Source: a virus (taxonomy: Duplodnaviria > Caudoviricetes). Taken from it: a stretch of 64,000 nt of DNA. The stretch lies in the IMG/VR virus record IMGVR_UViG_3300044846_003573. One strand, written 5' to 3'. The notes beneath the pieces are model-generated. The model did no database searches, was not told where the DNA came from, and saw only the letters and a list, made by a program, of their open reading frames with translations. Both the position numbers and the translations under genes were made by a program. Of this stretch, positions 722 through 20,338 are shown one piece after another; position 1 is the stretch's first letter; each line of letters begins with the position of its first letter.

Positions 722-730
722 TTTTGTTCC

Positions 731-1887: not shown

Positions 1888-2088
1888 TTTTAAAACTAAA
1901 ATTTTAAAGGTTAAAGTCTAAATTATTTTCTATTGTATTTAAAATATTCTTTTCTGTCTCGGATGACTAAAGAAACGTTAAAAAATAAAAATATTGGAAT
2001 AAAAATTAAACTAATCATACCAATATATAGGTATGAAATGTTGAAAGTGTGTTAAGGAATTATTAACAAATCTTGAATAAATTTGTTA

Positions 2089-3201
2089 TTAGAAATAACT
2101 ATTAAACTCAATATTAAGACATTTTTTAACGTCACCTAAATCGGGGTAGTCAGGAACTCTTCCAGAACTCAACCAATTTAAATCACCACTTTCAAATAAA
2201 CTTTTAAGTAGGTTGATATAACCTCCGTAATAATTTAAATTTTCATATGGGTTATTTACGTTACTTTCAAACCAAAGTTTAATATTATAATGAGCAGTTT
2301 TTGTGACTTCATATCTTACACCCCATCTTTCTGTTGATGTACTTTTATTGTAGTCGTGTTTTTTGTATTTATACTCTTCTGATTTTTTACTATCAATAAC
2401 CTCACCGACTAATTGTCCTATAAGTGAGTCATACAATTCGTTAGCGTAAACCGACCCATAACAATTTGAGTATAATGAATATAATTCACTTCTTATATCT
2501 AATCCTAAGTTCATTATAAAGTATTCAACGCAATCATTATCTTGTAAAAGTTTAGTGATTATCTCTTCATTTAATTTTAAATTTGATTCATCACCTTGTT
2601 TTTTTGCTAAATCTTCTATTAATTCAGGAGTTATATAATCAATTGATAAATTACCAATTTTAAGTAAATCTTCTTTGATGTATCCTCTAATTTCTTCTTG
2701 ATATTTTGGTTCTAGTTCTTCATAAACATCTTTGAATTCATCACCTGTTACGTCATCATAAAAATAACCATCATAATCCCCATTTAATATTTCGGCAATT
2801 CTATCTTCACTAATATCGTTTCTACCACTACTAAAGAATTGTGCCAGTTCACCAGAATCTTCTAAATCAACATAATATTTCCCATCAATTTCAGTTATAT
2901 CTGAAAATTCCATTTCCATCATCTTATAGATGTAATTTGGGTCTTTTTGTATTAATTGATAAATTATTTTATTTTGATAATCCGACCAGTCATCATTAAA
3001 AGGGTCAATGTAATGTGTTAAATTATATTTAATTATTAACTCAAAAAATTTATCAAAACTACCCATAGCGTTTTCAATATCCTCTTCAGTAACATCTCCG
3101 TTTTGGAATAAAGTAATAAGTTTTATTAACTTATTTTGGAAACCTGTTAGTACGGGTTTTTCCTCTTCTTCGTTTAATTTTTTGAAAATTTTAAATTCCA
3201 T
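2089..3201 (-). CDS. acidic hypothetical protein, possibly virion-associated
   Basis: 370-aa ORF with TATTTAT upstream on the minus strand (3206-3212). N-terminus KKLNEEEE. Confidence 0.75.
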   Translation of the reverse strand: MEFKIFKKLNEEEEKPVLTGFQNKLIKLITLFQNGDVTEEDIENAMGSFDKFFELIIKYNLTHYIDPFNDDWSDYQNKIIYQLIQKDPNYIYKMMEMEFSDITEIDGKYYVDLEDSGELAQFFSSGRNDISEDRIAEILNGDYDGYFYDDVTGDEFKDVYEELEPKYQEEIRGYIKEDLLKIGNLSIDYITPELIEDLAKKQGDESNLKLNEEIITKLLQDNDCVEYFIMNLGLDIRSELYSLYSNCYGSVYANELYDSLIGQLVGEVIDSKKSEEYKYKKHDYNKSTSTERWGVRYEVTKTAHYNIKLWFESNVNNPYENLNYYGGYINLLKSLFESGDLNWLSSGRVPDYPDLGDVKKCLNIEFNSYF

Positions 3202-3263
3202 AATTATAAATATAAAAAAAGGGGAAAAATTCCCCTTTTAGTTTTCTTATGTTGCGGGAAAAA

Positions 3264-3305
3264 TTATTTTCCACATCCGCAACCACCACCGTTGTTGTTT
3301 TTCAT
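3264..3305 (-). CDS. 13-aa micropeptide MKNNNGGGCGCGK
   Basis: Read by hand on the minus strand. A-rich leader, followed by the hairpin at 3218-3240. Confidence 0.4.
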   Translation of the reverse strand: MKNNNGGGCGCGK

Positions 3306-3329
3306 TGTTTTTAATTTATTAGAGGTTTA

Positions 3330-3455
3330 TTACTTTTTCTTGTTTTTATTGTAGTACTTATCAATAGTACTTTGAACTGCGTTTTTAATACTCTCAGTTC
3401 TTAACTTTTTCACCTGTTCAGGTGAAGCGTTTTGTTTTTTACATCCACATCCCAT
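3330..3455 (-). CDS. 41-aa basic protein MGCGCKKQNASPEQVKKLRTESIKNAVQSTIDKYYNKNKKK
   Basis: Read by hand. TATTTAT motif upstream on the minus strand (3473-3479). Confidence 0.6.
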   Translation of the reverse strand: MGCGCKKQNASPEQVKKLRTESIKNAVQSTIDKYYNKNKKK

Positions 3456-3545
3456 ATTGTTGGTATTTTATTATAAATATTTACCACATGTGATTTAATA
3501 GTAAATAATATAGTTATTTTAATATTTATTAATATAATTTTTATC

Positions 3546-4847
3546 ATGAGAGTTAATATAGATATATCACAAATACAAAGGGTTGTTCAGATGTTGGTTG
3601 AGGAAGAAGGACAAGAGAGTGTTGTTATAACACCTGAGCAATATATTAATTTTTTAAAGTTTACTAATTATAACGGTAAATTGGTTCAAAATATGAAACA
3701 ATTCAGAGGTAAACGAATTGTTATTGATGGTGATTTAAGTCTGAGAAATACGGATGCTAATAACATTACAAATATCACAGTTAATGGTGGTTTAGATTTA
3801 TCATATACACTAGTTAATTCTATTGAGGGTCTTATATACAATAATATTTCAACATATGGGACACCGTATCAAAAAATTCAAATCAAAAAACAAAGACAGA
3901 TTGAATTAGCCAAACAAAACGATTTACGACAAGAGGACGAATGGAATTTAGAAACTGCAACAAGTGATATTGCGATTACCGCAAATGTTTTATTTGAGTT
4001 TCTGACTTCATCTTCTGGTCTTTATGAAGCTAAAGAACCTAATCATGATGCTAGGTTACAACAACTTTACGCTGAAAAAGAAAGAATGGAAGAAATTGAA
4101 AGAAAAACGGAAGATAATGAAAATCTGATGGATTTAGAGGCGGTTGAAGAAGAAATTGAATACCTTGAACTAAGAATTGACGTATATAACTTGGTTTACG
4201 CCTACAAATATTATAATATGAGAGTTTTCTATGTGTTAACTGGCGACTTAGAAGAATCAAAAGAAAGATGGGCGGTTGGTGATAATTACGACACCCACAT
4301 GTCAGCGTATGAAAAAATTGATGAATTAATCGATGATATTGGAATAAAAGGTTTTAATCAAAGTTTTGTTGAAGATTATATTGATGTTGAAGAACTTAAG
4401 GAAACTTTCAGAGAAGATGAAGAAAGTAATGTTAGAGAAAACCTTGAAGATTTTTTTAATGAGGAAGATTTTGAATATTCAGACCCAGCAGTTCAAGAAA
4501 GAATTGATGAGATTAATAAAATGTTGGAAGATTCTGAGAACTTATCACAAGAACAATATGACGAATTAAATGAAGAGTTGGATGAATTAAAAGATAGTGA
4601 TAAAACTATTCCTGAAGATTTAATTGAGGATAAGGTTGAAGATTTAGTTAATGATTTGGTTGATGACCCTATGACCACAATTCAAAATTATGGTTTGGAA
4701 ATTGAGAATTATATAGACACACAAGGATTCAAAGAAGGATTACTTCGTTCTGATGGTATCGGTCACACATTGAACACTTACGATGGTGAATACGATACTA
4801 TTGAATTTAATGATGAAACATATTACATTTTACAAATAGAAGGGTAA
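3546..4847 (+). CDS. acidic hypothetical protein with short leucine-rich-repeat-like units
   Basis: GDLSLRNT / GGLDLSYT units and a very D/E-rich C-terminal half. TATTTAT at 3523-3529. Confidence 0.75.
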   Translation: MRVNIDISQIQRVVQMLVEEEGQESVVITPEQYINFLKFTNYNGKLVQNMKQFRGKRIVIDGDLSLRNTDANNITNITVNGGLDLSYTLVNSIEGLIYNNISTYGTPYQKIQIKKQRQIELAKQNDLRQEDEWNLETATSDIAITANVLFEFLTSSSGLYEAKEPNHDARLQQLYAEKERMEEIERKTEDNENLMDLEAVEEEIEYLELRIDVYNLVYAYKYYNMRVFYVLTGDLEESKERWAVGDNYDTHMSAYEKIDELIDDIGIKGFNQSFVEDYIDVEELKETFREDEESNVRENLEDFFNEEDFEYSDPAVQERIDEINKMLEDSENLSQEQYDELNEELDELKDSDKTIPEDLIEDKVEDLVNDLVDDPMTTIQNYGLEIENYIDTQGFKEGLLRSDGIGHTLNTYDGEYDTIEFNDETYYILQIEG

Positions 4848-4848
4848 A

Positions 4849-5610
4849 ATGGAAACCAAACCAAGAAAAAGAAGAACAAAAAAAAATAATCATTTCAGAT
4901 TAACGACAGACTGGTTATTAACAGAACCAATTGACTACGAACACAAATATTATATGTTGATGGACTTTTTAAAGTTCTGTGACGATAAGATTGAGAAGTT
5001 TGAGTTATACCCCTTATTTAGTGAAATGTCATTACACTTGGCTAATCTACAAGTGATGTCTTCGGAATTCAAATACATCATAGTTAACAAAAAATTTGAA
5101 GTCATTGATGATGAAATACTAATCAATGAACTTAAATTTACACCAATCCCAAAGTTAGGTGATGATGAGTTGGAGGAACTAAATAAGGTTCTAAAATATG
5201 CCGGACCAAAGTTTTTTGAATACTTTAATGTCATCAAAGCTCTTTGGACATTAACATACGATTCAGTTTCAATCAAACATACCAACGAAAACAAGAAACA
5301 GGATTTAGAAAGAGGTTACTTTTTTACACTTAATGGGAACAACAAAAGGATTTGGAAGTATACAACTGGTGGTATTGATACGGTTAAACACGACAGTAAA
5401 TTTGCGGTTCAGTTAATATTTGATGGGGAAAGTAAAAAGGTAATCAGAACAATATTAAATGAATTAACTCAAGATATAAGTTTACCTATTTTTGAATTAA
5501 TGTCTTCCAACGACCTACCATTTGAAAATACACTCCTACCAATCTTTAAAAGAAAGGTATTAAGTTACATAGTTCAGAAAAAAACAATTGTAAATCTAAA
5601 GAAAAATTAA
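4849..5610 (+). CDS. hypothetical protein
   Basis: 253-aa ORF abutting the previous gene. Confidence 0.75.
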   Translation: METKPRKRRTKKNNHFRLTTDWLLTEPIDYEHKYYMLMDFLKFCDDKIEKFELYPLFSEMSLHLANLQVMSSEFKYIIVNKKFEVIDDEILINELKFTPIPKLGDDELEELNKVLKYAGPKFFEYFNVIKALWTLTYDSVSIKHTNENKKQDLERGYFFTLNGNNKRIWKYTTGGIDTVKHDSKFAVQLIFDGESKKVIRTILNELTQDISLPIFELMSSNDLPFENTLLPIFKRKVLSYIVQKKTIVNLKKN

Positions 5611-5622
5611 TACTTTTGTAAT

Positions 5623-5784
5623 ATGGGATTCAACAAAAAAATAATAGGGGAAGAACAAATTAAAAATTTAGAAAAAGATTTAACTATTATTAATCACTAT
5701 CTCAAAGCTGATTCCATCATTTTCACAAATAACGACGTTGCTAAAAAATTTAAAGAGTATGAGAAACAATATAGACCTGAATGA
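5623..5784 (+). CDS. small hypothetical protein
   Basis: MGFNKKIIGEEQIKNLEKDL... (53 aa), directly after TACTTTTG at 5611-5618. Confidence 0.6.
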   Translation: MGFNKKIIGEEQIKNLEKDLTIINHYLKADSIIFTNNDVAKKFKEYEKQYRPE

Positions 5785-5959
5785 AGTTCTGTTAAGAAAA
5801 CTTGAAAAACCAGTTCATATCAATTACATTTGTGATTATATCCTACGAGTTGGAATCGATGAAACAAGAAAACGAATTGAAAAACTTGTAAGTGAGGGTA
5901 TACTTGAAGAAAGTAAATATGGAAAAGAATATTATGTCAGAACAAAAAGAAATGGTTAA
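5759..5959 (+). CDS. small hypothetical protein, possible winged helix
   Basis: PVHINYICDYILRVGIDETRKRIEKLVSEGILEE pattern. Confidence 0.6.
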   Translation: MRNNIDLNEVLLRKLEKPVHINYICDYILRVGIDETRKRIEKLVSEGILEESKYGKEYYVRTKRNG

Positions 5960-6161
5960 TCATCCATCACACTATGGTGGTGAGGATAATCCATATGAAG
6001 CAATCAAGGTCATTGATGCTTGGGGTTTAGATAAAGATTTTTATTTGGGTAATGCGGTCAAATACCTATCACGAGCTGGTAAGAAAGACAACGTAGTTCA
6101 GGACTTGAAGAAAGCGATATGGTATATTGAAAAAAAGATAGAAAAATTACAGAATGATTGA
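5934..6161 (+). CDS. DUF3310-like phage protein
   Basis: VNHPSHY...FYLGNAVKYLSRAGKK...DLKKAIWY signature. Confidence 0.85.
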   Translation: MSEQKEMVNHPSHYGGEDNPYEAIKVIDAWGLDKDFYLGNAVKYLSRAGKKDNVVQDLKKAIWYIEKKIEKLQND

Positions 6162-7011
6162 GAATTATATTAACAGAGTCCTGAATGGTGATACCATTGA
6201 GGTGATGAGTGAGATGCCTGAAGGTTGGGTTGACTTGATTGTAACATCACCACCTTATAATGTAGGTATCCAATACGACACACATAACGATGAGATTGTT
6301 ATGGATGAATATTGGGTGTGGTCTGAAAAATGGTTAACGGAAGCGTATCGTTTACTTAAAGACGATGGAAGAATGGCTATTAACATACCATATGAAGTTA
6401 ATGTACAAGCTCGTGGTGGTAGAGTATTCTTCGCTTCAGAATTATATCAGGTAATGAAGAAAGTTGGGTTTAAGTTCTACGGTATTGTGGACCTTGAAGA
6501 AGACTCACCACATAGAAGTAAAACAACTGCTTGGGGTTCTTGGATGAGTCCATCCGCACCTTATATCTACAACCCAAAAGAATGTGTCATCTTGGCTTAT
6601 AAAAAAGTTCATATCAAGAAGGTTAAAGGTGAACCACAATGGAAGGGTGAACCTTATCTAACTGAAGAAGGAAAGAACAAAGTTGCTTATTCCGAACAAG
6701 ATAAAAAAGAGTTTATGGAATTGGTATTTGGACAATGGAAATACTTTGCCGATACTCGTTCATTAACAAAGGCAACGTTCTCTATGGATATTCCTGAAAA
6801 GGCAATTAAGATATTATCATATAGAAACGATGTAGTGTTAGACCCGTTCAATGGTTCAGGAACCAGTTGTGTAGCCGCAGTTGTTCATGATAGACGATGG
6901 GTTGGTATTGAATTGAGTGAAAAATATTGTGAAATTGCAAAACAACGAATACAAAGTTTTGTAGACCAAAAGAGTCAACAAAAATTAGAATTTGAAAATG
7001 GGGGTCAATGA
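6154..7011 (+). CDS. DNA amino-methyltransferase (N4-C/N6-A, beta class)
   Basis: TSPPYN catalytic motif precedes the VLDPFNGSGTS SAM-binding motif. Confidence 0.92.
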   Translation: MIENYINRVLNGDTIEVMSEMPEGWVDLIVTSPPYNVGIQYDTHNDEIVMDEYWVWSEKWLTEAYRLLKDDGRMAINIPYEVNVQARGGRVFFASELYQVMKKVGFKFYGIVDLEEDSPHRSKTTAWGSWMSPSAPYIYNPKECVILAYKKVHIKKVKGEPQWKGEPYLTEEGKNKVAYSEQDKKEFMELVFGQWKYFADTRSLTKATFSMDIPEKAIKILSYRNDVVLDPFNGSGTSCVAAVVHDRRWVGIELSEKYCEIAKQRIQSFVDQKSQQKLEFENGGQ

Positions 7012-7055
7012 CCTCCATTTTTCATTTATTGATATATTTATTATAAAATATTGTT

Positions 7056-7427
7056 ATGAAAAATTCGGAAGTTGTTAAATTTTTATTAGAAACCCAAACT
7101 CAGTTCAGAGTGTTACACTGGCAAACAAAATCACTATCAAGACATAAGGCGTATGGTAAAACATATAGTTCACTTGATGATTTAATTGATAAGTTTGTTG
7201 AAGTTTGTATGGGTAAACACGGAAGACCTAGTTTTACAGGTGGTTATAGTTTAGGTGGTAGTGATATTGAAGAACTTGATTTAACTGGTTTTATTAATTC
7301 AGTATGTGAATATCTTATTGGACTTTCAGAAGTTTATGACCCAAAGATGGACTCAGATTTATTAAACATTAGAGACGAAATGTTAGCGGAAATTAACAAG
7401 TTGAAATACTTGTTAACTTTAAAATAA
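7056..7427 (+). CDS. Dps/ferritin-like four-helix protein (DUF5856-like)
   Basis: FRVLHWQTK..RHKAYGKTYSSLDDLIDKFVEV..G and C-terminal LLNIRDEML..KLKYLL. Confidence 0.75.
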   Translation: MKNSEVVKFLLETQTQFRVLHWQTKSLSRHKAYGKTYSSLDDLIDKFVEVCMGKHGRPSFTGGYSLGGSDIEELDLTGFINSVCEYLIGLSEVYDPKMDSDLLNIRDEMLAEINKLKYLLTLK

Positions 7428-7502
7428 GAGGTATATTACTTTTTTACTTTAAAAGGTTCATCGTAATGATGAACTTTTTTTTTGTTACAATATTTATTAT
7501 TA

Positions 7503-8906
7503 ATGAAAAAGATAATTTCCGAAGGTGGTATCAGAAACATAAGAGAACTTTCTGATAGATACAAAAAAGCAAAGATATACTTCCACCAAGATTTAGATGG
7601 TGTTGCAACTGCATTAGCGATGAAAAAGTATTTGGAAGACAACGGAATCAAAGTTGTTGATGTTGAAGTAATCCAATACGGAGATAAGGAATTCGCGGTT
7701 AAGAAAGCAGATGCTGAAGGTGAAATCATGCCAGTTCTTGTTGACTTTGCTCACGGAAAACCAATGTTCGTGGTTCATACTGACCACCACGATAGACAAG
7801 CCGGAGCTGACGAAACTAAGTCAACTCAGTTCAGAGGGGCTCGTTCAAATGTTGAAACTCTTTCACAGATTGTCCCGGCTTCTGAAATTTTCACACCAGA
7901 AGATGTTGCGACAATATCTATGGTTGATAGTGCTGATTATGCTTCAAAAAACATTACACCTGAAATGGTGATGAATTATGTGTATGGGACATCAAAAGAA
8001 AAGAGTGCTAAAGAAAATAGAATGTTATTAGGTTTGGTTACCAACAAATTATTGTTGGCTTTCAAAAGTAAACCAGGATTTTTAGAGACATTAGTATTAG
8101 ATTGTAAACCTTCACTTCTTTCAATCTTCAATAAGATTAAGGAATTAATGAAGACAAACAGATATGCTGATATATCTTCATTAGAGAAAAACAAAGAAGA
8201 TTACGTTCAGACAATGAAAGGACATAAGAATGTTCAGGTTAAAGATAATATCATCGTTCAGTATGGTGGTGGTAGTATGATGAGACCTGGTTCGTATGAC
8301 AGATACACCCCATTTAGAAACAACCCTGAAGCTGACTTTTTAGTTATTGCTTGGCCACTTGGTTTATTACAGGCATCATGTAACCCTTTTAAAAAAGAAA
8401 GAGAACTTAAAGGTGTTAACTTGGGAGAAATTGCTCAAGAAGTATTGGGACATTGGGAATCACAATTAAAAGAAAAACAAGTCCCATTATCAACAATCAA
8501 GTGGGTTTCTGAAACTGCTGCGAAAGAAGAATCAGTTGGATTTACCTTTAAGGATTTTGCTGCAATATACGGAGACAAATACTTGGATGAGAAAGATGGT
8601 GTTAAAACACTTATGGATATTAAATCTTTGATGGAAAAAAAATCATCTGAATTGACCGAAGAAGAATGGAGTGTGTTAGATGGTGTTACTGTTCCAGTAT
8701 GGGAAGTTATCCAAGCTAATTCAGGTGGACACAAGTGTATTACAAATGTATCTGGTTTAAATTATATTGGAAGAAGTAAGAGACCACCACAAGGTAAGTA
8801 CAAGTACGATTCTGAAAAAGAAGATTCACCTTATATTAAGTTCTTAAAGATGTTACAGAATAGATTTGTGAATGTTTTACAACAGAAGATTGAGGAAAGT
8901 AAGTAA
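7503..8906 (+). CDS. DHH-family phosphoesterase
   Basis: HQDLDG, VLVDFAH, TDHH and C-terminal SGGH motifs. Confidence 0.75.
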   Translation: MKKIISEGGIRNIRELSDRYKKAKIYFHQDLDGVATALAMKKYLEDNGIKVVDVEVIQYGDKEFAVKKADAEGEIMPVLVDFAHGKPMFVVHTDHHDRQAGADETKSTQFRGARSNVETLSQIVPASEIFTPEDVATISMVDSADYASKNITPEMVMNYVYGTSKEKSAKENRMLLGLVTNKLLLAFKSKPGFLETLVLDCKPSLLSIFNKIKELMKTNRYADISSLEKNKEDYVQTMKGHKNVQVKDNIIVQYGGGSMMRPGSYDRYTPFRNNPEADFLVIAWPLGLLQASCNPFKKERELKGVNLGEIAQEVLGHWESQLKEKQVPLSTIKWVSETAAKEESVGFTFKDFAAIYGDKYLDEKDGVKTLMDIKSLMEKKSSELTEEEWSVLDGVTVPVWEVIQANSGGHKCITNVSGLNYIGRSKRPPQGKYKYDSEKEDSPYIKFLKMLQNRFVNVLQQKIEESK

Positions 8907-8907
8907 T

Positions 8908-9255
8908 TTATTTAAAGAACTCACAAACTTGTCCTTCTCTGATACCTAAATCTTCACAGGTACCACCTTCAAGTTCTAATACATACATTCCTTTACCTAC
9001 AAACCTTTCACAAGGTTGAACCTTACATGGTTCACAGTAGTGATGTATTTTATTGATTTTAAAGTTCTTATCAATAAAGATAATGTCTAAAGGGATGATA
9101 CAATTCATCATCCAAAAACTATGTGAACCATCACCCATGATGAACAACATACCGTCAAAATCGTCAAAAGTCTTGTTCATCATACCTTGACTGGTCTCAG
9201 AACTTTCAATTAACACTTTGACATTGAAACTATTTTTATTTATTTTTAACAACAT
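8908..9255 (-). CDS. DUF192 family protein
   Basis: GMLFIM..HSFWMMNCIIPLDIIFID and YVLELEGG. Confidence 0.85.
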   Translation of the reverse strand: MLLKINKNSFNVKVLIESSETSQGMMNKTFDDFDGMLFIMGDGSHSFWMMNCIIPLDIIFIDKNFKINKIHHYCEPCKVQPCERFVGKGMYVLELEGGTCEDLGIREGQVCEFFK

Positions 9256-9275
9256 ACTTATTAATAAATATTTCT

Positions 9276-9686
9276 ATGAAACAAAGTGCAGGAATTATTG
9301 TGAAAGTAAATGATAAATGTTTGGTTTGTAAGAGAACTGCTGAGATTAATGAACCATCAAAGTGGGCAATACCTATGGGTGGAATAGAAGAAGGTGAAGA
9401 CCCAAAGGATGCTGCGTATAGAGAGTTCTATGAGGAGATGGGTGTTCCAGTTGAAGAAGATATTAAACCTTTGGGTAAAATTAATCGTTATAACAAATTA
9501 GGTGGAATAAAAACTATTCTACATGTGTTCCTTTTAAAGACTGATACCAAAATCATTCCTGATTTAGAGAATGCTATGGACGGTTTTGAACACACAGAAT
9601 GTGCGTACATGACTTTAGAAGAAATTAAAAAACTTAATATGTCATCAGGTATTAAGGAAGTTTTAACTGATGTGTTAAATTTTTGA
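9276..9686 (+). CDS. Nudix hydrolase
   Basis: GGIEEGEDPKDAAYREFYEEMG Nudix box. Confidence 0.92.
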   Translation: MKQSAGIIVKVNDKCLVCKRTAEINEPSKWAIPMGGIEEGEDPKDAAYREFYEEMGVPVEEDIKPLGKINRYNKLGGIKTILHVFLLKTDTKIIPDLENAMDGFEHTECAYMTLEEIKKLNMSSGIKEVLTDVLNF

Positions 9687-9703
9687 TTTTTTTGATATAT
9701 TTA

Positions 9704-9837
9704 TTTGACACTACGGAATATTCGCTGTAAGTTTGTAAAAGATTTAACACTTATAGGAAATGAAAGATACTCGGTAGTTAAATCAAAAAAAAAGTTCACA
9801 AACTACTTGACAGAAAGAAAAAAAAGTCGTAAGTTTG
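9704..9837 (+). promoter_or_regulatory. tandem Bacteroidota sigma70-type promoters upstream of the large ncRNA
   Basis: TTTG(9704-9707)-N20-TAAGTTTG(9728-9735) and TTG(9807)-N20-TAAGTTTG(9830-9837). These match the -33/-7 consensus TTTG-N19-21-TAnnTTTG. Confidence 0.75.
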
Positions 9838-9848
9838 TAAAACAAATC

Positions 9849-10757
9849 GGAAATGTCCGAGACGTTCTTTGAAACAAAAAGATTATCCATTCTCTGAGTA
9901 AGTCGTATTCCCGCCTTCGTGTGACGAATATGAGCACTGAAAAGAGATAAACGATAATGGGCCGTGTATGGTCCTTAAATAAACTACGAAAGTAGGATAA
10001 AGTGGTCTCCCCCGTGTTGAGGAGACTGCGGTTTGAAACCCCGTAAGGGGAATTGAACTCAAGTACACAAGTGGGGTATCACCAAACCTTTAGTACCGAG
10101 GATAACTTCGTAGGGAGAATGGTAGGGTGACCTGGCAAAGTAGATTGTCAGGTTGAGTTCGGAAGAACGATAAGAATAACCCATAGGAACTCTGTAAGAA
10201 ATGTGACCATCCAGTTACACAATTGCGGGTCCCAATATGATAGAGGACTTAAAACCGAAAGGTAAGATGGAGAACGAGTGGTGTCGCTACTATCCCTAAG
10301 GAAGACCTACCAAGGTCTCTTTATGAAGTAATCTTGAAATATGGAGGTGGGGACACTTCACGGAGTAGTTTAGTATTCTGTCGCTCAAAAGGAGACAGAG
10401 CTTATGTTGGACCACTACTCTGACACATCTACAACACAACCCTAAAATTATTACAAAATAACAAAGGAAAAGTGTCCATCAGGTTTGAGTGAAAGGTGAC
10501 TACATAGTAATGAGCCGTTCATTGCATACAGAGACCCCAAGTCAATGTGTATTGTTAAGAAAAACCTTTAGTCCCGCAAGGACGAACTGGGGTGGCAACC
10601 TCGGAAAGAGTTAAGTATTGATAGAGTAATTCAAACCTCAAGGAGTGGTACACCTAAAATACCGTCACTAAGAAATACTACCCAAAAGGTGGTGGATAAG
10701 AAGGGAAACAATAATCCTTCAAAAGTTTCTTAACATAAGCTGTAATCTCAGGCTTTT
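9849..10757 (+). ncRNA. large highly structured non-coding RNA (GOLLD/ROOL-class candidate)
   Basis: About 900 nt with no credible ORF and higher GC than its flanks. Many GNRA hairpins (ctacGAAAgtag, ccccGTAAgggg, accGAAAggt, gtccCGCAAGgac). Own promoters, boxA-like GTTCTTTGA and terminator. Confidence 0.7.
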
Positions 10758-10764
10758 CTAATTT

Positions 10765-10790
10765 GACCTGTCAATTGACGGGTTTTTTTA
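10765..10790 (+). terminator. intrinsic terminator of the large ncRNA
   Basis: acctgtcaATTGACgggt stem followed by a T-tract. Confidence 0.7.
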
Positions 10791-10810
10791 TTTATAGACA
10801 CTTATAAACT

Positions 10811-11035
10811 ATGACAATATTAGAAAATCTTAAAGAGGTATTACCATCATGGGCGGTGGTAAAACAAAAGGAACTACCATATAAGATGGAGTATGAGATT
10901 AGACTTCAACCTACTTTGGATGAGGATGAACATTTTGCTTTAACACCAAAACTTAAGGAAGCTTGTCAGGGTAAGTTTATGGAAAGATACACTGTAGATA
11001 TTGGTGAACACTTTTATATTTATACAAAAAAGTAA
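10811..11035 (+). CDS. hypothetical protein
   Basis: 74-aa ORF. Confidence 0.65.
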   Translation: MTILENLKEVLPSWAVVKQKELPYKMEYEIRLQPTLDEDEHFALTPKLKEACQGKFMERYTVDIGEHFYIYTKK

Positions 11036-11037
11036 TC

Positions 11038-11223
11038 ATGATACCTAAAGAGATTAAAGAATTAGTTAACAAATACCCAAACAATTATGAATTGGGTGAG
11101 GAAGTTAGAAAATATTATCACAAAAATAAACAGAAAGAAAATTTTAATTCTGGTGTTCTGTGGATAGGAATTTTATTCTTTTTTATATTTGCTTCACTCT
11201 TGACTTGGATTATAACCGTTTAA
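11038..11223 (+). CDS. small membrane protein
   Basis: YPNNYELGEEVRKY motif plus a C-terminal hydrophobic helix. Confidence 0.65.
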   Translation: MIPKEIKELVNKYPNNYELGEEVRKYYHKNKQKENFNSGVLWIGILFFFIFASLLTWIITV

Positions 11224-11263
11224 TTTCCTGACTTTAAACATATTTATAATAAAATTATAAATT

Positions 11264-12097
11264 ATGTTACTAAAAGTTGGGTCTAAAGGAGAAGACGTTA
11301 AAAAACTCCAAGCAAAATTAGGTACCACCGCTGATGGAAGTTTCGGTCCTGGTACAGAAAAACTGGTTAAAGAATGGCAATCGGATAACGGACTAACAGC
11401 TGACGGTATCGTTGGTGATGGTACTTGGTCTAAGATGTTCCCAACAACTCAACCAGTTCAAGTGGTTAAAGAAGATGTTGTTATCCCGACAAGTTCTGAG
11501 TTTAAATTACAAAATCTAAAAGGACATGTTCCTGACGCAGTAATTGCTCAAATCCCTGAAACTGCTAAAAAATTCAATATTACTAACCCATTAAGATTAG
11601 CTCATTTCTTGGCTCAGTGTGGACACGAGTCAGGTGGGTTTAAAGCTGTTTCTGAGAACCTTAACTATTCTGCTGACGGACTTAAGAAAATCTTTGGTAA
11701 GTATTTCCCTGGTAACTTAAATGAGTCATACGCTCGTCAACCTGAAAAGATTGCTTCACGTGTTTATGGAAGTAGAATGGGTAATGGTGATGAGTCAACA
11801 GGTGAAGGTTTCAAGTTCCGTGGAAGAGGTTACATCCAATTAACTGGTAAGAATAACTATACAAACTTCGCTAAGTTCATTGGTGAAGATACTGTGTCTA
11901 ATCCTGATTTAGTTGCAACCAAATATCCTTTGGCATCTGCGGCGTTCTTCTTTGATTCAAATAAACTTTGGTCAATCTGTGATAAGGGTGCAGATGTTGC
12001 AACGGTCACGGCAGTTACCAAGAGAGTTAATGGTGGTACGATAGGTCTACCAGATAGAATAAAACACTTCAACGAGTATTATAACCTACTTAAATAA
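11264..12097 (+). CDS. endolysin: peptidoglycan-binding domain plus GH19 (chitinase-like) muramidase
   Basis: GSKGEDVKKLQ..DGSFGPGT..ADGIVGDGTW PG-binding repeat, AHFLAQCGHESGG, FRGRGYIQLTGKNNY and TKRVNGGTIGL. Confidence 0.92.
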   Translation: MLLKVGSKGEDVKKLQAKLGTTADGSFGPGTEKLVKEWQSDNGLTADGIVGDGTWSKMFPTTQPVQVVKEDVVIPTSSEFKLQNLKGHVPDAVIAQIPETAKKFNITNPLRLAHFLAQCGHESGGFKAVSENLNYSADGLKKIFGKYFPGNLNESYARQPEKIASRVYGSRMGNGDESTGEGFKFRGRGYIQLTGKNNYTNFAKFIGEDTVSNPDLVATKYPLASAAFFFDSNKLWSICDKGADVATVTAVTKRVNGGTIGLPDRIKHFNEYYNLLK

Positions 12098-12100
12098 TCT

Positions 12101-12127
12101 AAAACCCCTTGAAAAAGGGGTTTTTTA
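12101..12127 (+). terminator. intrinsic terminator
   Basis: aaaaccccttgaaaaagggg followed by T7. Confidence 0.8.
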
Positions 12128-12185
12128 TTTTACAATAAAGAAATTATTCACTATATTTGTATCACTAATTAAAAAATAAAAAAAT

Positions 12186-13238
12186 ATGAAAAAAATCAAA
12201 TTATTTCTCTTAACTCTTTTTGCATTCATTGGAATGAGTGCATCATCACAAGTATTAACGTCTTTTAACGTTGATATAATTAACCTCGGAGGATGTCCAT
12301 ACACATTGTTCGGAAACTATTATGGAGGTGGTATTCAAGGTAGTATTACTTTAACACAACAACCTACAGGAAGTTATGTTGCAGTTGTACCAGCAATTGA
12401 TAGTCTAAATGTTAGTATCTGTGCAATTTATACTTCACCATGTTTAGGTGAGACTTGTATAAATGAAACAATATATCTTGGGTCAGGACAAGGTGTTCAG
12501 ACATTTACGATAGTACTTCAAAACCAAGACTCAGATTTTGATGGGTTCATGGATAACATTGACTGTAATCCATTTGACCCATATATCTATCCAGGTGCAC
12601 CTGAACTATGTTATGACGGTATTGATAACAACTGTGATGGTTTAATTGAGGCAATGCCGACAATTGATACTCTGTACTTTGTTCCTGATTCACTTGTATC
12701 TGAACCAAACACTATTTACGTGGTTTACCAAGGTTCAAATACTGTAGAATGGGAATGGTTTTTTGGAAATGGAGGAAATGGGACGAGTTCAAACGAACAA
12801 TACCCAACCATTACATTCCCTACCTCAACGTTTACTTCACAAATGCTCCCGATTAACTTATACGCAATTTCCATTAATGGTTGTCAGGTTTATACTTCAA
12901 TAAACTTTTCAATTGATAGTAATGGAGTTTGGACACCGGGTGGAATTTTAAATGATTATACCTTAAACGTTGTTCCTGAATTTATAATTGGGGTTGAAGA
13001 AACAATGACTAATAACGTTAAAGTTTGGCCAAACCCTGTGTTAGGTGTTGTTAATATTAATACACCTTCAAATAGTGGGATGTTAAGAATTATGTCTATC
13101 GACGGAAGATGTGTCTATCAAGAAAAATATTTAACTAACAACATTCAGTTTGATTCTGAAATATTAAGTGACGGAACCTACGTTATTACTCTTACTGACG
13201 ATAGTGGTAAGTTTTATACAACAAGAATTATTAAATAA
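12186..13238 (+). CDS. secreted protein with a T9SS type A C-terminal sorting domain, metal-binding repeat and PKD-like domain
   Basis: Sec signal peptide; [33 protein letters not shown]; WEWFFGNG; C-terminal [23 protein letters not shown]. Confidence 0.85.
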
Positions 13239-13283
13239 TAAAATCCCCCTGAAACATGGGGGATTATAATTTTTATATCGGAT

Positions 13284-13547
13284 ATGAAAATTAAAATGGG
13301 GGTGGTTGAAAAACACCAATACGAAGGTGTTAGAGAATTTGAGGAAATTGACTTGGATAAGTTTCCGATTATTAAACAGTTTATGGATGTTAATCCAGAT
13401 TGTACCGAACAGGAATTACTTTCTTATATTAAGAAGATTAAAGACGAAGAGTTCAAAAAATTCATAACAGAACTAAGTTGGAACTCTATCATTAAAGAAA
13501 ACTTCAGTAAAAATAAAACTGAATTTAAAATAGAAATAGAGAAATGA
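13284..13547 (+). CDS. hypothetical protein
   Basis: 87-aa ORF. Confidence 0.65.
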   Translation: MKIKMGVVEKHQYEGVREFEEIDLDKFPIIKQFMDVNPDCTEQELLSYIKKIKDEEFKKFITELSWNSIIKENFSKNKTEFKIEIEK

Positions 13548-14512
13548 ATATATTAATAACTGGTGGATTAGGTTTTATTGGTTCTAATTTTTATAACACC
13601 TTTAAAAAGAAATATCCTGACTATAATTTAGTTATCCTTGATAGTGGGACATATGCTGCTGATGAAAATAACATTGAAAATTTTAGAAGTTCTAGAATAA
13701 TCAAATTCAGTATTACTGAACGAGAAAGATTATTTAAGTTATTTGAAAATTACAAGTTTGACTCGGTAATACACTTTGCCGCTGAATCACATGTTGATAA
13801 CTCAATATTAAATCCGATGGAGTTTGTTCAAACAAATATTATTGGAACGTTGAATCTGTTGGATGCTTCAATTAAGTATGGTATTAAATTGTTCTATCAT
13901 ATATCGACTGATGAGGTTTTCGGACATTTAGGTGCGGTGGGTTCTTTTGATGAGAAAACTGCTTATGACCCAAGAAGTCCTTATTCCGCATCGAAGGCAT
14001 CATCCGACCACTTTGTTAGAGCGTACTACCACACTTATGGATTACCTGTTGTTATATCAAACTGTTCAAACAATTTTGGACCGAACCAACACCAAGAAAA
14101 ATTAATTCCGACAATCATTAAAAGTATCCTCAATGGTGAACCAATACCAGTTTATGGTAACGGACAGAATGTTAGAGATTGGTTATATGTTCAGGACCAT
14201 GTGGATGCGATTGATATGATATTCCACAAAGGTAAGGTAGGTGAAACCTATTGTATCGGTGGACGTAATGAATTAAACAATTTAAGACTTGTTAGGTTGA
14301 TTTGTGATAAGATTGATAATATTAAACAATGGGAACAGAACTCACAGGATTTAATTACATTTGTTGAAGATAGAAAAGGACATGACTTTAGATACTCTAT
14401 TGATTCAACCAAAGTAAAAGAACAAATTGGGTGGGAACCTAAAGTTAATTTTGATGAAGGGTTAGACAGAACTATCGATTTTTATTTTAAAAAGTTTGGA
14501 AGTCAGGAATAG
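13544..14512 (+). CDS. rfbB: dTDP-glucose 4,6-dehydratase
   Basis: ITGGLGFIGSNF, HFAAESHVDNS, HISTDEVFG, SPYSASKAS, RDWLYVQDH, DRKGHDFRY. Confidence 0.95.
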   Translation: MNILITGGLGFIGSNFYNTFKKKYPDYNLVILDSGTYAADENNIENFRSSRIIKFSITERERLFKLFENYKFDSVIHFAAESHVDNSILNPMEFVQTNIIGTLNLLDASIKYGIKLFYHISTDEVFGHLGAVGSFDEKTAYDPRSPYSASKASSDHFVRAYYHTYGLPVVISNCSNNFGPNQHQEKLIPTIIKSILNGEPIPVYGNGQNVRDWLYVQDHVDAIDMIFHKGKVGETYCIGGRNELNNLRLVRLICDKIDNIKQWEQNSQDLITFVEDRKGHDFRYSIDSTKVKEQIGWEPKVNFDEGLDRTIDFYFKKFGSQE

Positions 14513-14530
14513 TTTATCTATATTTGTGTT

Positions 14531-14791
14531 ATGAAAGTAACATTAAACATCCAACACGAAAAATTCGGTAAAGTTTTAACAATGTCTTTTGTGGACGCAA
14601 TACAGACAAAGTTATTTTTAAAACTTGTGAATGACGCTATTGATAACGGAGTCGCGTTCAGATACTTCAACGTGACTGACACATTAGTACATATTCCTAA
14701 CAAGATTTTAGTTGAATCTTTAATCACAACTGAAATGGAGTTTGTGACATTTTCTGAACAAGTATTGGCTAAAGTAGGTGAGGTTAAATAG
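14531..14791 (+). CDS. hypothetical protein
   Basis: 86-aa ORF after TATATTTG (14519-14526), followed by hairpins and a terminator at about 14836-14866. Confidence 0.7.
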   Translation: MKVTLNIQHEKFGKVLTMSFVDAIQTKLFLKLVNDAIDNGVAFRYFNVTDTLVHIPNKILVESLITTEMEFVTFSEQVLAKVGEVK

Positions 14792-14896
14792 TCTTTGTTA
14801 GACAAAGTGGTGGACCAACTTCCGGGTTGGGCTCAAAAGGGAACATTAGTGTTCCCTTTTTTCTTTTTATTTGTATTTATATATAAAACTATAGTT

Positions 14897-15214
14897 ATGT
14901 CAAAAATTATAATCACAGAAGAACAACTTCAAAAATTAAAAAAAGCTTTATCTGAAAATACTGAGACTATTAAAGAAGATAAAGATGGTAATTATATGGC
15001 TAAGCAACAACTTTTTACCATTGGTACTTTAGCATTACAAATGTGGGAGATTTTAGAAGATGACGAACAGTTGGATGACTGGATGGAATCTAAAATTGCG
15101 CAATCTGAACAATCAATCGTTTCAGTGGTTAAAGCTTACATGTATGACGAAGTAGTTGATGATATGAAAGGTATGGAAACTTTAAACTACAATGATATTG
15201 TAATTGGTAAGTAA
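14897..15214 (+). CDS. hypothetical protein with N-terminal IITEEQ motif
   Basis: True start is likely MSKIIITEEQLQKL. YMAKQQL..LDDWMESKI segment. TATTTAT at 14874-14880. Confidence 0.7.
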   Translation: MSKIIITEEQLQKLKKALSENTETIKEDKDGNYMAKQQLFTIGTLALQMWEILEDDEQLDDWMESKIAQSEQSIVSVVKAYMYDEVVDDMKGMETLNYNDIVIGK

Positions 15215-16095
15215 TGAAAAAGAAAAAACTTATAACTGAAGAGGTCAAAAATAAATTTTACCTATATAATCCTATACCTATTGTTAAGCAGGAGGCGGTT
15301 ATTGTTATTCAAGACATTCTAAAAAGTCGCAATTTGAATTTTGAATGGGGGGAAAATGTTGATTTAAATACTTTTGATGTAGTTAACCGAATGAGGTTTA
15401 AAGATTATATCAATCGTGTTATTAAGTATAAAGAGATTAGAGGACATGCGATTGAAGGATTGATGGCTGGTTTATTTGGAGGAATTCTTAATGAAAGTAA
15501 AAGTGGGGTATGGGATTATGAAATCAGACAAGGACAAGTTGAACAGAAATTTTTAAATAGTAGTGAAGAAAGTCCGTCAATAGGTGGTTTTACAAATGCT
15601 TTAAATAGTTTAGGGTCAGACGCAGTTATAGATATTAAAAATACTATATCAAAATATGATATGACAGGAACCAATTTATTTTTGATAAATGACGATAGTT
15701 TGACTGAATATAAGAAAGAAATTTTAAGAAAGATACTTGTTGATATTACATGTATTACATTTGATTCTAATGATAGATTAAAGACATATTATTTAACAAA
15801 AGAAAACGCTGTCGAATTATTTTCAGATGCTAATAACATAAGAAAACCAAGAAAATTAAGTTCCAATGAGTTAAGGGCTTCTTCTGATGTTTTTATTAAT
15901 GGAGGAAATTCTTTTGATATTATTAAAGCGAAAGTAAAACCGGAAGAATATAAAGAATATATTGAGGTGACCCAAAGAGATATAGAAGTTGCAAAGATTT
16001 TTGGACCTTATGGTGGAAAAATTAGACCTGATATTTTAAATTGGATACAACAAAATAAAGATGAATTTAAAAATTTGGTTAATACATTGTTATAA
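15214..16095 (+). CDS. hypothetical protein, possible PD-(D/E)xK nuclease fold
   Basis: RGHAIEGL...WDYEIRQGQVEQK has E..D..ExK spacing. Confidence 0.55.
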   Translation: MKKKKLITEEVKNKFYLYNPIPIVKQEAVIVIQDILKSRNLNFEWGENVDLNTFDVVNRMRFKDYINRVIKYKEIRGHAIEGLMAGLFGGILNESKSGVWDYEIRQGQVEQKFLNSSEESPSIGGFTNALNSLGSDAVIDIKNTISKYDMTGTNLFLINDDSLTEYKKEILRKILVDITCITFDSNDRLKTYYLTKENAVELFSDANNIRKPRKLSSNELRASSDVFINGGNSFDIIKAKVKPEEYKEYIEVTQRDIEVAKIFGPYGGKIRPDILNWIQQNKDEFKNLVNTLL

Positions 16096-17144
16096 TGAAA
16101 ATTATTATTACAGAAGAACAATATAAACGATTATTAACAGAATCACTTGGTGTTAATGAACCTGCAATTGAATATACTAATTTTATATATAATTTATTAG
16201 AACCAATTGCTATTGAAATGATTGATTTGGGTAAAAAAAAGATTGAAGAAATTGATATCACAGTAAAAGAGTTACTTAACTTTATTAAGAGTGACCCTGA
16301 AACATTCCAAGAATTACCAATTGAAGAGTTAGAACTTGATTTAGTATTTATACCTACAAAAAATGAATTAATCGGTGATAAACCATTTGCAGTTGGTGGT
16401 GGTTATTATGATTTGTTGGATGAGGAAAATGGGGGTTCATATATAATTGACTCATCATTTAGAATACCAAAAGACATACTTCAGGATGTACCAAAGACCA
16501 TTCATGCTAAATTACAATTTGAAATATATGTTAATCCATCATTTGACGAGACAATGATGGATGATTTGTTGTTTGATTTAAGAGATACAATTACTCACGA
16601 AGTTAATCATCTATATGAATCTTATAAAAGATGGGAAAACACTGGTAGAGGTAGTAACAACTTAGTTAAATCTTTTGCTGGAACAAAGAATGTCAATACG
16701 CCAAAAGTTATTTTCCAAGTGTATAGTAAATTTTTAAACTTTTTGTATTATTCAGAGCCTTGGGAAATTAATGCAAACGTACAGGAAGCGTTTTCAAAGA
16801 TTAGTAGAATGAGTTTTGATGACTTTAAAAAAACTAGTCAATGGGAGATTGCTAACGATATGGAAAATTACTCGGCTGACGGACTATTTGAAGAATTAAT
16901 TAAGACTGCTGAAAGTAAAGACCCTGACACAGTAGATTATCATATTAGAAATTTACATAAGTTTTATCTTAAACAATATAAAAAATATGACGAATCATAT
17001 AGAGAAGCTAATGATATTAAAGATACTGTTTATAAGACCAAAAACTTACTTGATTTATTTAGAAAATATGAAAAAAGAATTAATTTAGCGGGTAAAAAAC
17101 TAAAAAAGAATTACACTAGATTATATGCAATTGAAAAATCTTAA
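16095..17144 (+). CDS. HExxH zinc-metallopeptidase-like protein with N-terminal IITEEQ motif
   Basis: ITHEVNHLYE with downstream EPWEINANVQE. Confidence 0.65.
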   Translation: MKIIITEEQYKRLLTESLGVNEPAIEYTNFIYNLLEPIAIEMIDLGKKKIEEIDITVKELLNFIKSDPETFQELPIEELELDLVFIPTKNELIGDKPFAVGGGYYDLLDEENGGSYIIDSSFRIPKDILQDVPKTIHAKLQFEIYVNPSFDETMMDDLLFDLRDTITHEVNHLYESYKRWENTGRGSNNLVKSFAGTKNVNTPKVIFQVYSKFLNFLYYSEPWEINANVQEAFSKISRMSFDDFKKTSQWEIANDMENYSADGLFEELIKTAESKDPDTVDYHIRNLHKFYLKQYKKYDESYREANDIKDTVYKTKNLLDLFRKYEKRINLAGKKLKKNYTRLYAIEKS

Positions 17145-17556
17145 CATATTATTATTTATTTTACTATTCACATCTTGTGCTAGTTTTGAAAACCTAACAG
17201 ACGACAGAACAAGACCTGAAGATGATGAAATGTATTGGAACAGGACTGAAGAGTTTTGGGTGACACATCACGAACCAAAGGAAAGACCGGTATCAAGTGA
17301 GGATTACTATGGTAACAGAGTTGTATTACCCCCAACTTATTACAACAACTATCCTGATTATAACTACTATAATAGAAACAACAATTATTACCCAACGTAT
17401 AACTATCAACAGACTACACTACCATTACCACCACCTCCACCACCACAACACAACAACCCTTCACCGACTATTAATACTCCTAAACCAAATGTAACTCATT
17501 ATAAAAGAAATAATGAACCGCAAAGAGGTAATTCTAAACCTGGTGTTAGACGATGA
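17125..17556 (+). CDS. lipoprotein with Tyr/Asn- and Pro-rich low-complexity tail
   Basis: Lipobox LFTSC and a PPPPPP run. Confidence 0.7.
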   Translation: MQLKNLNILLFILLFTSCASFENLTDDRTRPEDDEMYWNRTEEFWVTHHEPKERPVSSEDYYGNRVVLPPTYYNNYPDYNYYNRNNNYYPTYNYQQTTLPLPPPPPPQHNNPSPTINTPKPNVTHYKRNNEPQRGNSKPGVRR

Positions 17557-17960
17557 ATAAAGAACTTAACGGGATAAATAAATTTCTTGATGGTAAAACT
17601 TTTGTTTACGACCATCGTGTTAGTTTCAGTGAAAAACCTGTAAAGGGTTATTATCAATTCCATATAGATAAAGTTGGTCAGTTAATAAGTATTGGTGAAA
17701 TGAAAGACCACCTTTTTGTATCGGTTAAGTTGGTTAATGGTGAAGGTATGGTTAATTTTTATTTATCCGCTTTTGGCAATAAACAAAAGATAACTGGAAG
17801 AGACCTTGTTAATAAACAATGGTATGAGTTTTCAGTTCAAATAGGTCATGACATTGAGGAATTCCTTAAATTCTTTAGTATTGATATGCCTGTCGTTGTT
17901 GATAACTTAGAATTTACCCCATCAAAAGATTTTGTTCCATTAATTATTTTGCCAAGTTAG
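17553..17960 (+). CDS. hypothetical protein
   Basis: 135-aa ORF. Confidence 0.7.
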   Translation: MNKELNGINKFLDGKTFVYDHRVSFSEKPVKGYYQFHIDKVGQLISIGEMKDHLFVSVKLVNGEGMVNFYLSAFGNKQKITGRDLVNKQWYEFSVQIGHDIEEFLKFFSIDMPVVVDNLEFTPSKDFVPLIILPS

Positions 17961-17985
17961 AATAATTTCGTATCTTAGCTCCCTT

Positions 17986-18156
17986 ATGAGCGACAAAACT
18001 AAATTTACAAGAACCTACGAAACGGACGAGACCATTGCTGTTTGGACTTATGATTTGGATAAGTTCAAGAACGGTCCGATTTCTGTTGACATCAAATACA
18101 AATACGACCCTGACAGGAAACTTTCCAACAGGGAAAAATACTCAAAGAAAAAATGA
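17986..18156 (+). CDS. small hypothetical protein
   Basis: MSDKTKFTRTYETDETIAVWTYDLDKFKNGPISVDIKYK..., read by hand. TGA overlaps the next ATG. Confidence 0.65.
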   Translation: MSDKTKFTRTYETDETIAVWTYDLDKFKNGPISVDIKYKYDPDRKLSNREKYSKKK

Positions 18157-18725
18157 AAGTAATCTTTTTAGACCACGATGGAGTTATCTGTTTATCTGAT
18201 AACTGGGGGTCACGATTTAAGAAACAAAAAAAGGCTAGACGAAAGTTAAGTCAATCAGTAATGACAATGCCTCTTGATGCTCGTTTTGATAACTTTGATA
18301 AGAAAGCAATCAAGGTATTGAATGAAATCTTGGAACAGACTGGCGCTGAAATTGTTGTCTCTTCTGACTGGAAAGTTTGGTGTTCAGTTGAAGAGATGGG
18401 TGATTACTATGAGAAACAAGGTATCATCAAACGACCAATTGATTTTACAACCAATACGATTGATGGGGAAAAAGTTACCTGGCACCGAAATTGGGATTTG
18501 GAAGGAACAAGAAGTGTACAAATCCAAGAATGGTTAAAGGAACATCCCGAAGTTACACATTGGGTGGCGATTGATGATTTGGAGATGGGAAAGACTGGAC
18601 TACGTTACTCAATGGAATATGAACACGAATGGGGACTTGATAACTTTGTCTTAACACCTTTGAACAATGAGGGTATCAAACAACTTGGGGTTAAAGAAAA
18701 GGTATTATCCTTTTTGGAAGGGTAA
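18153..18725 (+). CDS. HAD-superfamily phosphatase (type found in RNA-repair proteins)
   Basis: VIFLDHDGVIC, IVVSSDWK, WVAIDDL. Confidence 0.85.
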   Translation: MKVIFLDHDGVICLSDNWGSRFKKQKKARRKLSQSVMTMPLDARFDNFDKKAIKVLNEILEQTGAEIVVSSDWKVWCSVEEMGDYYEKQGIIKRPIDFTTNTIDGEKVTWHRNWDLEGTRSVQIQEWLKEHPEVTHWVAIDDLEMGKTGLRYSMEYEHEWGLDNFVLTPLNNEGIKQLGVKEKVLSFLEG

Positions 18726-18737
18726 TATTTATTTAAT

Positions 18738-19951: not shown

Positions 19952-20006
19952 ATTATGTAAATAGTAATAATTTTATTTAAAATTTGAAACTAAAATGAAA
20001 AAAAAC

Positions 20007-20037
20007 TTGACATAAGAAGAAATTTATAGTACTTTTG
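20007..20037 (+). promoter_or_regulatory. Bacteroidota-type promoter of the tRNA operon
   Basis: TTGA at 20007-20010 and TACTTTTG at 20030-20037. Confidence 0.7.
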
Positions 20038-20065
20038 TAAAACAATTGATATTTAATTAGAAACA

Positions 20066-20179: not shown

Positions 20180-20202
20180 TCGTATCATCAAATATATAAG
20201 GA

Positions 20203-20239: not shown

Positions 20240-20256
20240 GGGATAAAAGCACATAA

Positions 20257-20310: not shown

Positions 20311-20338
20311 CAGTGGTTCTTTGACGTATTGGGAAAAT

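Follow-up and report, generated by a model that had tools for sequence, protein, structure and literature searches.

GOLLD RNAs have been known since 2009, and the cage structure that they adopt since 2025. GOLLD env-38, from a marine metagenome, was resolved by cryo-EM as a 14-mer nanocage with D7 symmetry, 380 Å across (Kretsch et al., Nature 2025, PMC12286853), in which the 5' domains build the caps, the 3' domains build the ring, and a disordered linker (497-538) points inward (PMC12286853). The 5' halves of GOLLD RNAs were described in that work as less conserved (PMC12286853). The GOLLD of Streptococcus agalactiae (Sag), which is without P9, P11a-c, P21b and parts of P7 and P10 (PMC12990946), forms mainly decamers (review, PMC12990946). 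Ideas on the role of these cages include the encapsulation or storage of tRNA and an interaction with ribosomes (PMC12286853, PMC12990946). ROOL (RF03087; 8-mer nanocage) is likewise a large phage-associated cage RNA encoded near tRNA genes, with a sequence and fold unrelated to those of GOLLD.

The antitermination leader of rRNA (rrn) operons consists of a boxB hairpin, boxA, and boxC, and works with NusA, NusB, NusE, NusG, and SuhB. With the resulting complex in place, Rho termination on untranslated RNA is suppressed, elongation is faster, and co-transcriptional folding is assisted. In the nut sites of phage lambda, boxA comes first and boxB second, the partner is the N protein, and the targets are delayed-early mRNAs.

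The locus analyzed here lies in a stretch of phage DNA of 64,000 nucleotides, referred to as the window. Taken jointly, its features are very likely explained by an env-38-type GOLLD gene in a tRNA-rich lake phage with a probable Bacteroidota host, equipped with rRNA-style promoters and an rRNA-style leader. Table 1 gives the coordinates of the features.

Table 1. Features of the GOLLD locus in the window, with tmRNA positions in six related phage loci (L numbers)
Feature	Position	Strand	Description
GOLLD locus (gap)	9687-10810		flanked by NUDIX hydrolase gene 9276-9686 and gene 10811-11035
Leader	9703-9956	+	tandem promoters, hairpin, boxA-like motif, variable part
Promoter P1	9704-9735	+	TTTG/TTGACA 9704-9710, 17-nt spacer, TAAGTTTG 9728-9735; TAnnTTTG type
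Promoter P2	9807-9837	+	TTGACA 9807-9812, 17-nt spacer, TAAGTTTG 9830-9837
Leader hairpin	9847-9860	+	TCGG-AAATGT-CCGA; boxB-like position, 3 nt before boxA-like motif
boxA-like GTTCTTTGAAA	9864-9874	+	11-mer
Conserved block GATTATCC	9881-9888	+	6-8 nt after boxA-like motif
Variable leader part	9889-9956	+	hairpin differing even from that of the nearest record (G001); ends in GATAAAnGATAAT
GOLLD 5' domain	9957-10360	+	404 nt; counterpart of env-38 cage cap
GNRA-type hairpin	9977-9988		CTAC-GAAA-GTAG
GNRA-type hairpin	near 10044		CCCC-GTAA-GGGG
GNRA-type hairpin	near 10256		CC-GAAA-GG
GNRA-type hairpin	near 10573		CCC-GCAA-GG
GOLLD 3' domain	10361-10754	+	Rfam RF02032, model positions 1-416
A/C-rich single-stranded linker in 3' domain	~10423-10480	+	unpaired in Rfam alignment
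Intrinsic terminator	10765-10790	+	8-bp stem, 4-nt loop, T7
tmRNA, L006	2090-2488		
tmRNA, L029	5-424		
tmRNA, L021	5315-5713		
tmRNA, L009	7805-8203		
tmRNA, L016	2012-2389		
tmRNA, L004	861-1249		

Family identity, extent and conservation of the RNA

The preliminary description had hesitated between a GOLLD-class RNA and a new large RNA class, had proposed an Infernal comparison with the Rfam GOLLD model, and had named a strong match beforehand as the mark of a known class. Such a match was obtained. When the whole window was scanned with Rfam 15, the sole non-tRNA match was GOLLD (RF02032) on the + strand at 10361-10754, running over model positions 1-416 of 416 without truncation and scoring 321.7 bits (E = 2.5e-91), more than twice the gathering score of 150 bits; the GOLLD option was the right one. 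The terminal hairpin with its GUAAUCUCAG loop (L27) was aligned at high posterior probability by cmscan, as were the segments that form the pseudoknot of the 3' domain (bracketed columns). ROOL gave no match in the window in the Rfam searches, and a relaxed Rfam search of 9600-10900 returned, besides GOLLD, only a sub-threshold terminator-like match.

Since RF02032 is limited to the conserved 3' domain of GOLLD RNAs, the 5' ~400 nt were assessed separately. Blocks of window 9957-10360 were compared by eye with the env-38 cryo-EM construct, whose sequence was taken from the supplement of PMC12286853. The construct aligns from its nt 1 onward with the window from 9957 onward, and the two have in common, in the same order, ATGG.CCG..TATGGTC; AAATAAA..ACGAAAGTAGGATAAAGTGG; CTGCGGTTT; GTTGAGTTCGGAAGA.C.ATAAGAATAAC; GGTGGTG.CG; and ATGAAGTAA.CTTG.AAAT. 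Together with the RF02032 match, this homology of the 5' domain excludes the other option, a new class. As judged from the model match and the shared blocks, the RNA is a GOLLD of known class whose two domains are both of env-38 type. Its 3' domain has one hairpin that falls short of the Rfam consensus (model positions ~161-185) and also a shorter linker, so an oligomer number other than 14 is possible. No tRNA was found inside the linker (10423-10480).

The earlier statement that the region holds no credible ORF was borne out, the longest frames in the gap 9687-10810 being 61 aa on the - strand and 55 aa on the + strand (TTG start). The upstream neighbor matches Pfam NUDIX (E = 1.7e-20), and a run of small genes begins at 10811, downstream of the gap. 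The length of about 900 nt proposed for the RNA needs a correction, the conserved GOLLD body measuring ~798 nt (9957-10754) with ~115 nt of leader before it. From the start region of the second promoter to the terminator, the distance is ~945 nt. The 3' end and the terminator were both found as described: GCTGTAATCTCAGGC at 10739-10753 corresponds to the terminal hairpin of the Rfam GOLLD model, and the terminator at 10765-10790 has the same sequence in the nearest record. Several of the GNRA-type capped hairpins mentioned earlier can be read directly from the sequence.

This nearest record (G001), an IMG/VR phage contig of 85.6 kb with an estimated completeness of 29%, carries a near-identical GOLLD copy in which, relative to the window, two pairs of one hairpin (10127-10148) show compensatory changes. 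A conserved-motif scan of IMG/VR yielded 26 more loci, and blastn found two phage genomes, LR745206 and LR756502, of 634 and 642 kb; a megablast with window 1-20000 as query gave no match in the phage collection. Conservation over the whole length of the ~800-nt RNA extends to 28 phage loci. With nhmmer, the 5' half was recovered in 27 loci (E 7e-125 to 3.5e-25) and the 3' half in 28 (E 1.8e-117 to 2.3e-22), and all 16 relatives tested passed the Rfam GOLLD threshold, with 275-335 bits.

The 5'-half fold was derived with RNAalifold from 19 non-identical 5' halves. Its consensus contains 103 pairs; in 72 of them, both sides have changed at least once with pairing preserved, and 97.1% of the pair cells are canonical. 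In a control in which the 3' partner was slid by 1-3 columns, only 36-43% of cells were canonical and changes appeared in 16-23 pairs. A lack of conserved covarying structure was the outcome that the preliminary description had set against its own reading; compensatory changes in 72 of the 103 pairs were found instead, and covarying structure is conserved in both halves.

The window holds 23 tRNA genes, located 10-27 kb downstream of GOLLD, and in four relatives (L018, L010, L016, and L003) a tRNA starts 10-18 nt after GOLLD. A tmRNA (RF00023, 74-112 bits) was observed ~0.1-1.2 kb from GOLLD, on the opposite strand, in six related phage loci; the Rfam scan gave no tmRNA match in the window. 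In related phages, GOLLD seems to travel with tRNAs and tmRNA. Among the tRNA-like genes of the window, 25489-25576 scored just above threshold for the Rfam tRNA-Sec model (48 vs 47 bits) and was called tRNA-Ser (TGA anticodon) by ARAGORN; it is most likely an ordinary tRNA-Ser with a long arm.

Tandem promoters and leader module

The two tandem promoters proposed earlier are present, with TTGACA-N17-TAAGTTTGTAAAA at 9705-9740 and 9807-9842, and this pattern has only 2 matches in 64 kb against an expectation of 0.21. Promoter P1 is conserved in L001, L016, L014, L018, and L010, and a promoter at the place of P2 in 13 relatives; transcription from P2 is expected to start at ~9843. Six exact copies of TAnnTTTGTAAAA are present in the window, all of them on the + strand: one at each GOLLD promoter and the others at 20030, 26768, 30930, and 57879, of which those at 20030, 26768, and 30930 lie upstream of tRNA genes. 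A promoter-like TATCTTTG followed by GTTCTTTGAGA (24396) was also seen at 24370-24410, among tRNA-like RNAs. The transcript of the upstream promoter would open with a conserved stretch of ~45 nt (..GATGAAAGATACTCGG..; 9741-9806), which is also found in L016, L014, L018, and L010; no boxA follows the upstream promoters, either in the window (9741-9806) or in these four loci. The L016 group has three tandem promoters, not two.

Leaders were compared through an alignment of 22 loci and a motif-anchored view of 16 leaders, and their order proved fixed: promoter, hairpin, GTTCTTTGAAA, usually GATTATCC, a variable hairpin, and GOLLD P1. The boxA-like motif reported at 9864-9872 is there as GTTCTTTGA, the conserved unit being the 11-mer GTTCTTTGAAA at 9864-9874. 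An exact copy of this 11-mer is carried by 19 of 29 loci, and its placement ahead of GOLLD is constant across the 15 loci inspected. A hairpin of 5-7 bp lies 2-5 nt upstream of it in 15 of the 16 leaders, L001 having an insertion there, and the hairpin sequences are clade-specific, with five different stems among the 16. The GATTATCC(A/G)T block is kept in the window and 11 relatives and is missing in L011, L025, L022, and L002. The hairpin and the 11-mer are retained in L022 and the 634-kb phage (L002), even though GOLLD there lacks its own promoter and comes behind a tRNA. A processing stem formed by ATTATC in the leader and GATAAT just before GOLLD P1 was considered as a candidate and rejected, the pairing being lost in L029, L021, and L009.

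In Brevundimonas phage Bajun (ON529858), a member of the published GOLLD alignment, the boxA regular expression found no match in the GC-rich upstream region, and nhmmer found no match between that region and the window halves. Since the motif is missing in Bajun, the leader module is not shown to be general to GOLLD.

The motif also appears elsewhere in the window. The GTTCTTTGA core lies 23 nt before the first tRNA in the leader of the tRNA array. That leader (20007-20338) contains TTGACA-N17-TACTTTTGTAAAACAA and, at 20315-20326, GGTTCTTTGACG, which directly follows a tRNA-like T-arm and precedes tRNA-Asn by 12 nt. An exact GTTCTTTGAAA occupies 47787-47797 after a promoter-like TACATTTG, in the 5' untranslated region of a gene for 123 aa (47817-48188); this copy comes just after a terminator-like hairpin, and the whole element spans 47762-47816. 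The boxA-like motif before this gene is either a chance occurrence or a sign of operon antitermination. Because the copy at 47787 precedes a protein gene, the motif is not exclusive to stable RNAs.

Likeness to Bacteroidota rRNA operons, host and occurrence

The comparison set comprised five Bacteroidota genomes (Flavobacterium, Chryseobacterium, Christiangramia, a Saprospiraceae MAG, and a Bacteroidia MAG), in which the 16S gene was located and the leaders and spacers were read. A scan of genomes with a loosened GOLLD pattern had given at least 120 loci; because nhmmer with the window halves finds no GOLLD among the matches listed, these loci are regarded as chance matches, which are uninformative on which bacteria carry GOLLD and served only to reach Bacteroidota genomes.

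In all five genomes, rrn promoters of the TAnnTTTG type stand ahead of the 16S leaders. In three of the five, sense-oriented 12-mers of the form AGTTC(T/A)TTGA(A/C)A stand in the 16S leader and/or the 16S-23S spacer: in both 16S leaders and one 16S-23S spacer of the Saprospiraceae MAG, the leader and spacer of the Bacteroidia MAG, and the spacer of Flavobacterium. Looser variants are found in the leaders of the remaining two, and close variants in other rrn leaders read AAGTTCTTAGACA, AAGTTCATTGATA, and AGATCATTGACA. The 12-mer is present only 8-17 times per whole genome, so its location at both canonical boxA places is not due to chance. No counterpart of GATTATCC was seen in Bacteroidota rrn leaders; this block might be boxC-like or a processing site.

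At the level of sequence, the earlier proposal that the RNA is expressed like an rRNA operon agrees with these data, in that promoter type, hairpin, and boxA-like motif all match Bacteroidota rrn. The leader has the same arrangement and core sequence as the boxB/boxA antitermination signal in the rRNA operons of Bacteroidota; this likeness was assessed at phylum level, and from it we infer a function as antiterminator. A GOLLD with an rRNA-style leader may be a new point; in the full-text literature, no paper was found that links GOLLD with boxA or antitermination.

The phage probably infects Bacteroidota, as suggested by the promoter type, the identity of the boxA, and a T9SS C-terminal sorting domain (Por_Secre_tail) in ORF 12186-13238. 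The protein of this ORF also has a MopE-type metal-binding motif, and it adjoins a likely endolysin (11264-12097) with a peptidoglycan-binding domain and a glycoside hydrolase 19 domain. The completeness estimate of the nearest record (85.6 kb, 29%) points to a phage genome of ~300 kb.

Among lake-water metagenomes, 14 DNA runs from 14 different studies each contain at least half of the sampled words of the stretch, and at least part of it is found in 20 runs, six of them RNA libraries, from 19 studies. GOLLD-matching contigs occur in lake metatranscriptome libraries. The interval 9976-10721 is matched by contigs of four freshwater metatranscriptome libraries from four studies, the evidence consisting of assembled contigs pooled at >=90% likeness, for which strand, ends, and level are not given and DNA carry-over is possible. 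Contig pieces free of differences include 10139-10377 (X18), 10239-10396 and 10367-10492 (X15), and 10353-10432 (X19). Across 9000-11600, cover by RNA libraries is next to none in the flanks (9000-9695 and 10827-11600) and very little in the leader (9696-9956), uncovered positions not being evidence in themselves. Contigs that start near 9976/9977 do not map a 5' end, because their loose ends stem from relatives.

Proposed expression, alternatives and comparison with known systems

The features of the locus suggest a route from promoter to cage. Transcription would start at the two tandem TAnnTTTG promoters and stop at the intrinsic terminator (10765-10790), and with such strong stable-RNA promoters the host would make the untranslated GOLLD RNA of 0.8 kb as it makes rRNA. 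The boxA would recruit NusB/NusE and the rest of the rrn complex, giving a modified RNA polymerase; the transcript would then be shielded from Rho termination, and its orderly co-transcriptional folding would be favored. An untranslated, intricately folded RNA of 800 nt would profit from the suppression of Rho termination, the faster elongation, and the help in folding alike. The leader would probably be trimmed off afterwards, given that env-38 folds without one. By homology, the RNA would fold into the P1-P27 architecture and self-assemble into an RNA-only nanocage with the A/C-rich linker inside; assembly into a closed cage, and its stoichiometry, are extrapolated from env-38 and Sag GOLLD, the only two for which a cage is known. 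In the relatives in which a tRNA starts 10-18 nt downstream, the 3' end of GOLLD would be set by RNase P, and in the window by the terminator.

We see about an even chance that freshwater Bacteroidota phages of ~300 to >600 kb carry GOLLD behind tandem stable-RNA promoters and a working boxB-like/boxA antitermination module, the RNA being made by the host rRNA machinery. A rather unlikely but serious alternative accepts the GOLLD gene and takes the hairpin and GTTCTTTGAAA as a processing signal (RNase site) or a promoter-proximal element, not as a Nus-dependent antiterminator, in which case shared processing or AT-rich composition would account for the likeness to the rrn boxA. A second conserved block, GATTATCC, with no visible rrn-leader counterpart agrees with a processing signal, as does the copy of GTTCTTTGAAA before the protein gene at 47787; the leader is perhaps outside the stable RNA, env-38 having been solved without it. 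However, a processing signal accounts less readily for a motif that occupies the two canonical boxA sites (leader and spacer) of Bacteroidota rrn operons, that comes after a hairpin like its counterpart in rrn leaders, that stays invariant while its surroundings vary, and whose core recurs 23 nt before the phage tRNA array.

The other alternatives concern the identity of the RNA itself. A new large-RNA class that resembles GOLLD only at its 3' end would be compatible with an Rfam model confined to the 3' half and with GOLLD 5' halves that are less conserved (PMC12286853), but its probability is close to nil: the 5' half is homologous, block by block, to the env-38 5' domain (404 vs 420 nt), and this comparison and the RF02032 match refute it. 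A small-protein region or decaying remnant with an incidental RNA match is just as improbable, the short ORFs of 32-61 aa on both strands being outweighed by a covariance-model E of 2.5e-91, by substitutions among relatives that keep base pairs and not reading frames, and by the two compensatory pair changes within one hairpin of the G001 copy.

In large freshwater phages with a probable Bacteroidota host, the env-type two-domain GOLLD is a conserved gene; no new class is added, and the conserved rRNA-like leader represents a modest, testable addition to a known family. If the antitermination reading is true, GOLLD would be Rho-resistant, quickly elongated, chaperoned in its folding, and perhaps controlled by growth rate like rRNA and the phage tRNA array. 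It would also be tied to the translation-apparatus regulon, and its expression would gain an experimental handle of which the full-text searches turned up no description. With a working leader, GOLLD would be handled by the phage as one more stable RNA belonging to the translation apparatus, beside the tRNA genes, and this would narrow the hypotheses on its function.

Compared with the nut sites of phage lambda, the GOLLD leader likewise combines a phage boxA with a hairpin on the nascent RNA for modifying RNA polymerase. In contrast to nut, it follows the rrn order, with the hairpin first, would serve a stable RNA, and implies no N-like protein. With the rrn antitermination leader it shares tandem strong promoters, a hairpin, and the boxA core, as well as an untranslated, highly structured product; unlike that leader, it is phage-encoded and drives a cage RNA, and no boxC-like element was recognized in it.

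Among the cage RNAs, Sag GOLLD belongs to the same family and has the same conserved 3' domain, whereas the RNA of the window aligns with env-38 across the whole 5' domain. Two hairpins in the 3' model are taken as the putative P21 position. Because of this full 5'-domain alignment and the two putative P21 hairpins, the RNA looks to be of the env-38 type and not of the Sag type. Unlike env-38, which lies directly behind a tRNA-Met, the window copy has its own tandem promoters and terminator; it comes from fresh water and from a phage of ~300 kb with a probable Bacteroidota host, and one 3'-domain hairpin and the linker are shorter. The two RNAs are nevertheless homologous in both domains (798 vs 833 nt overall; 404 vs 420 nt in the 5' domain), each has a single-stranded 3'-domain linker, and each is set in a phage context close to tRNA genes.
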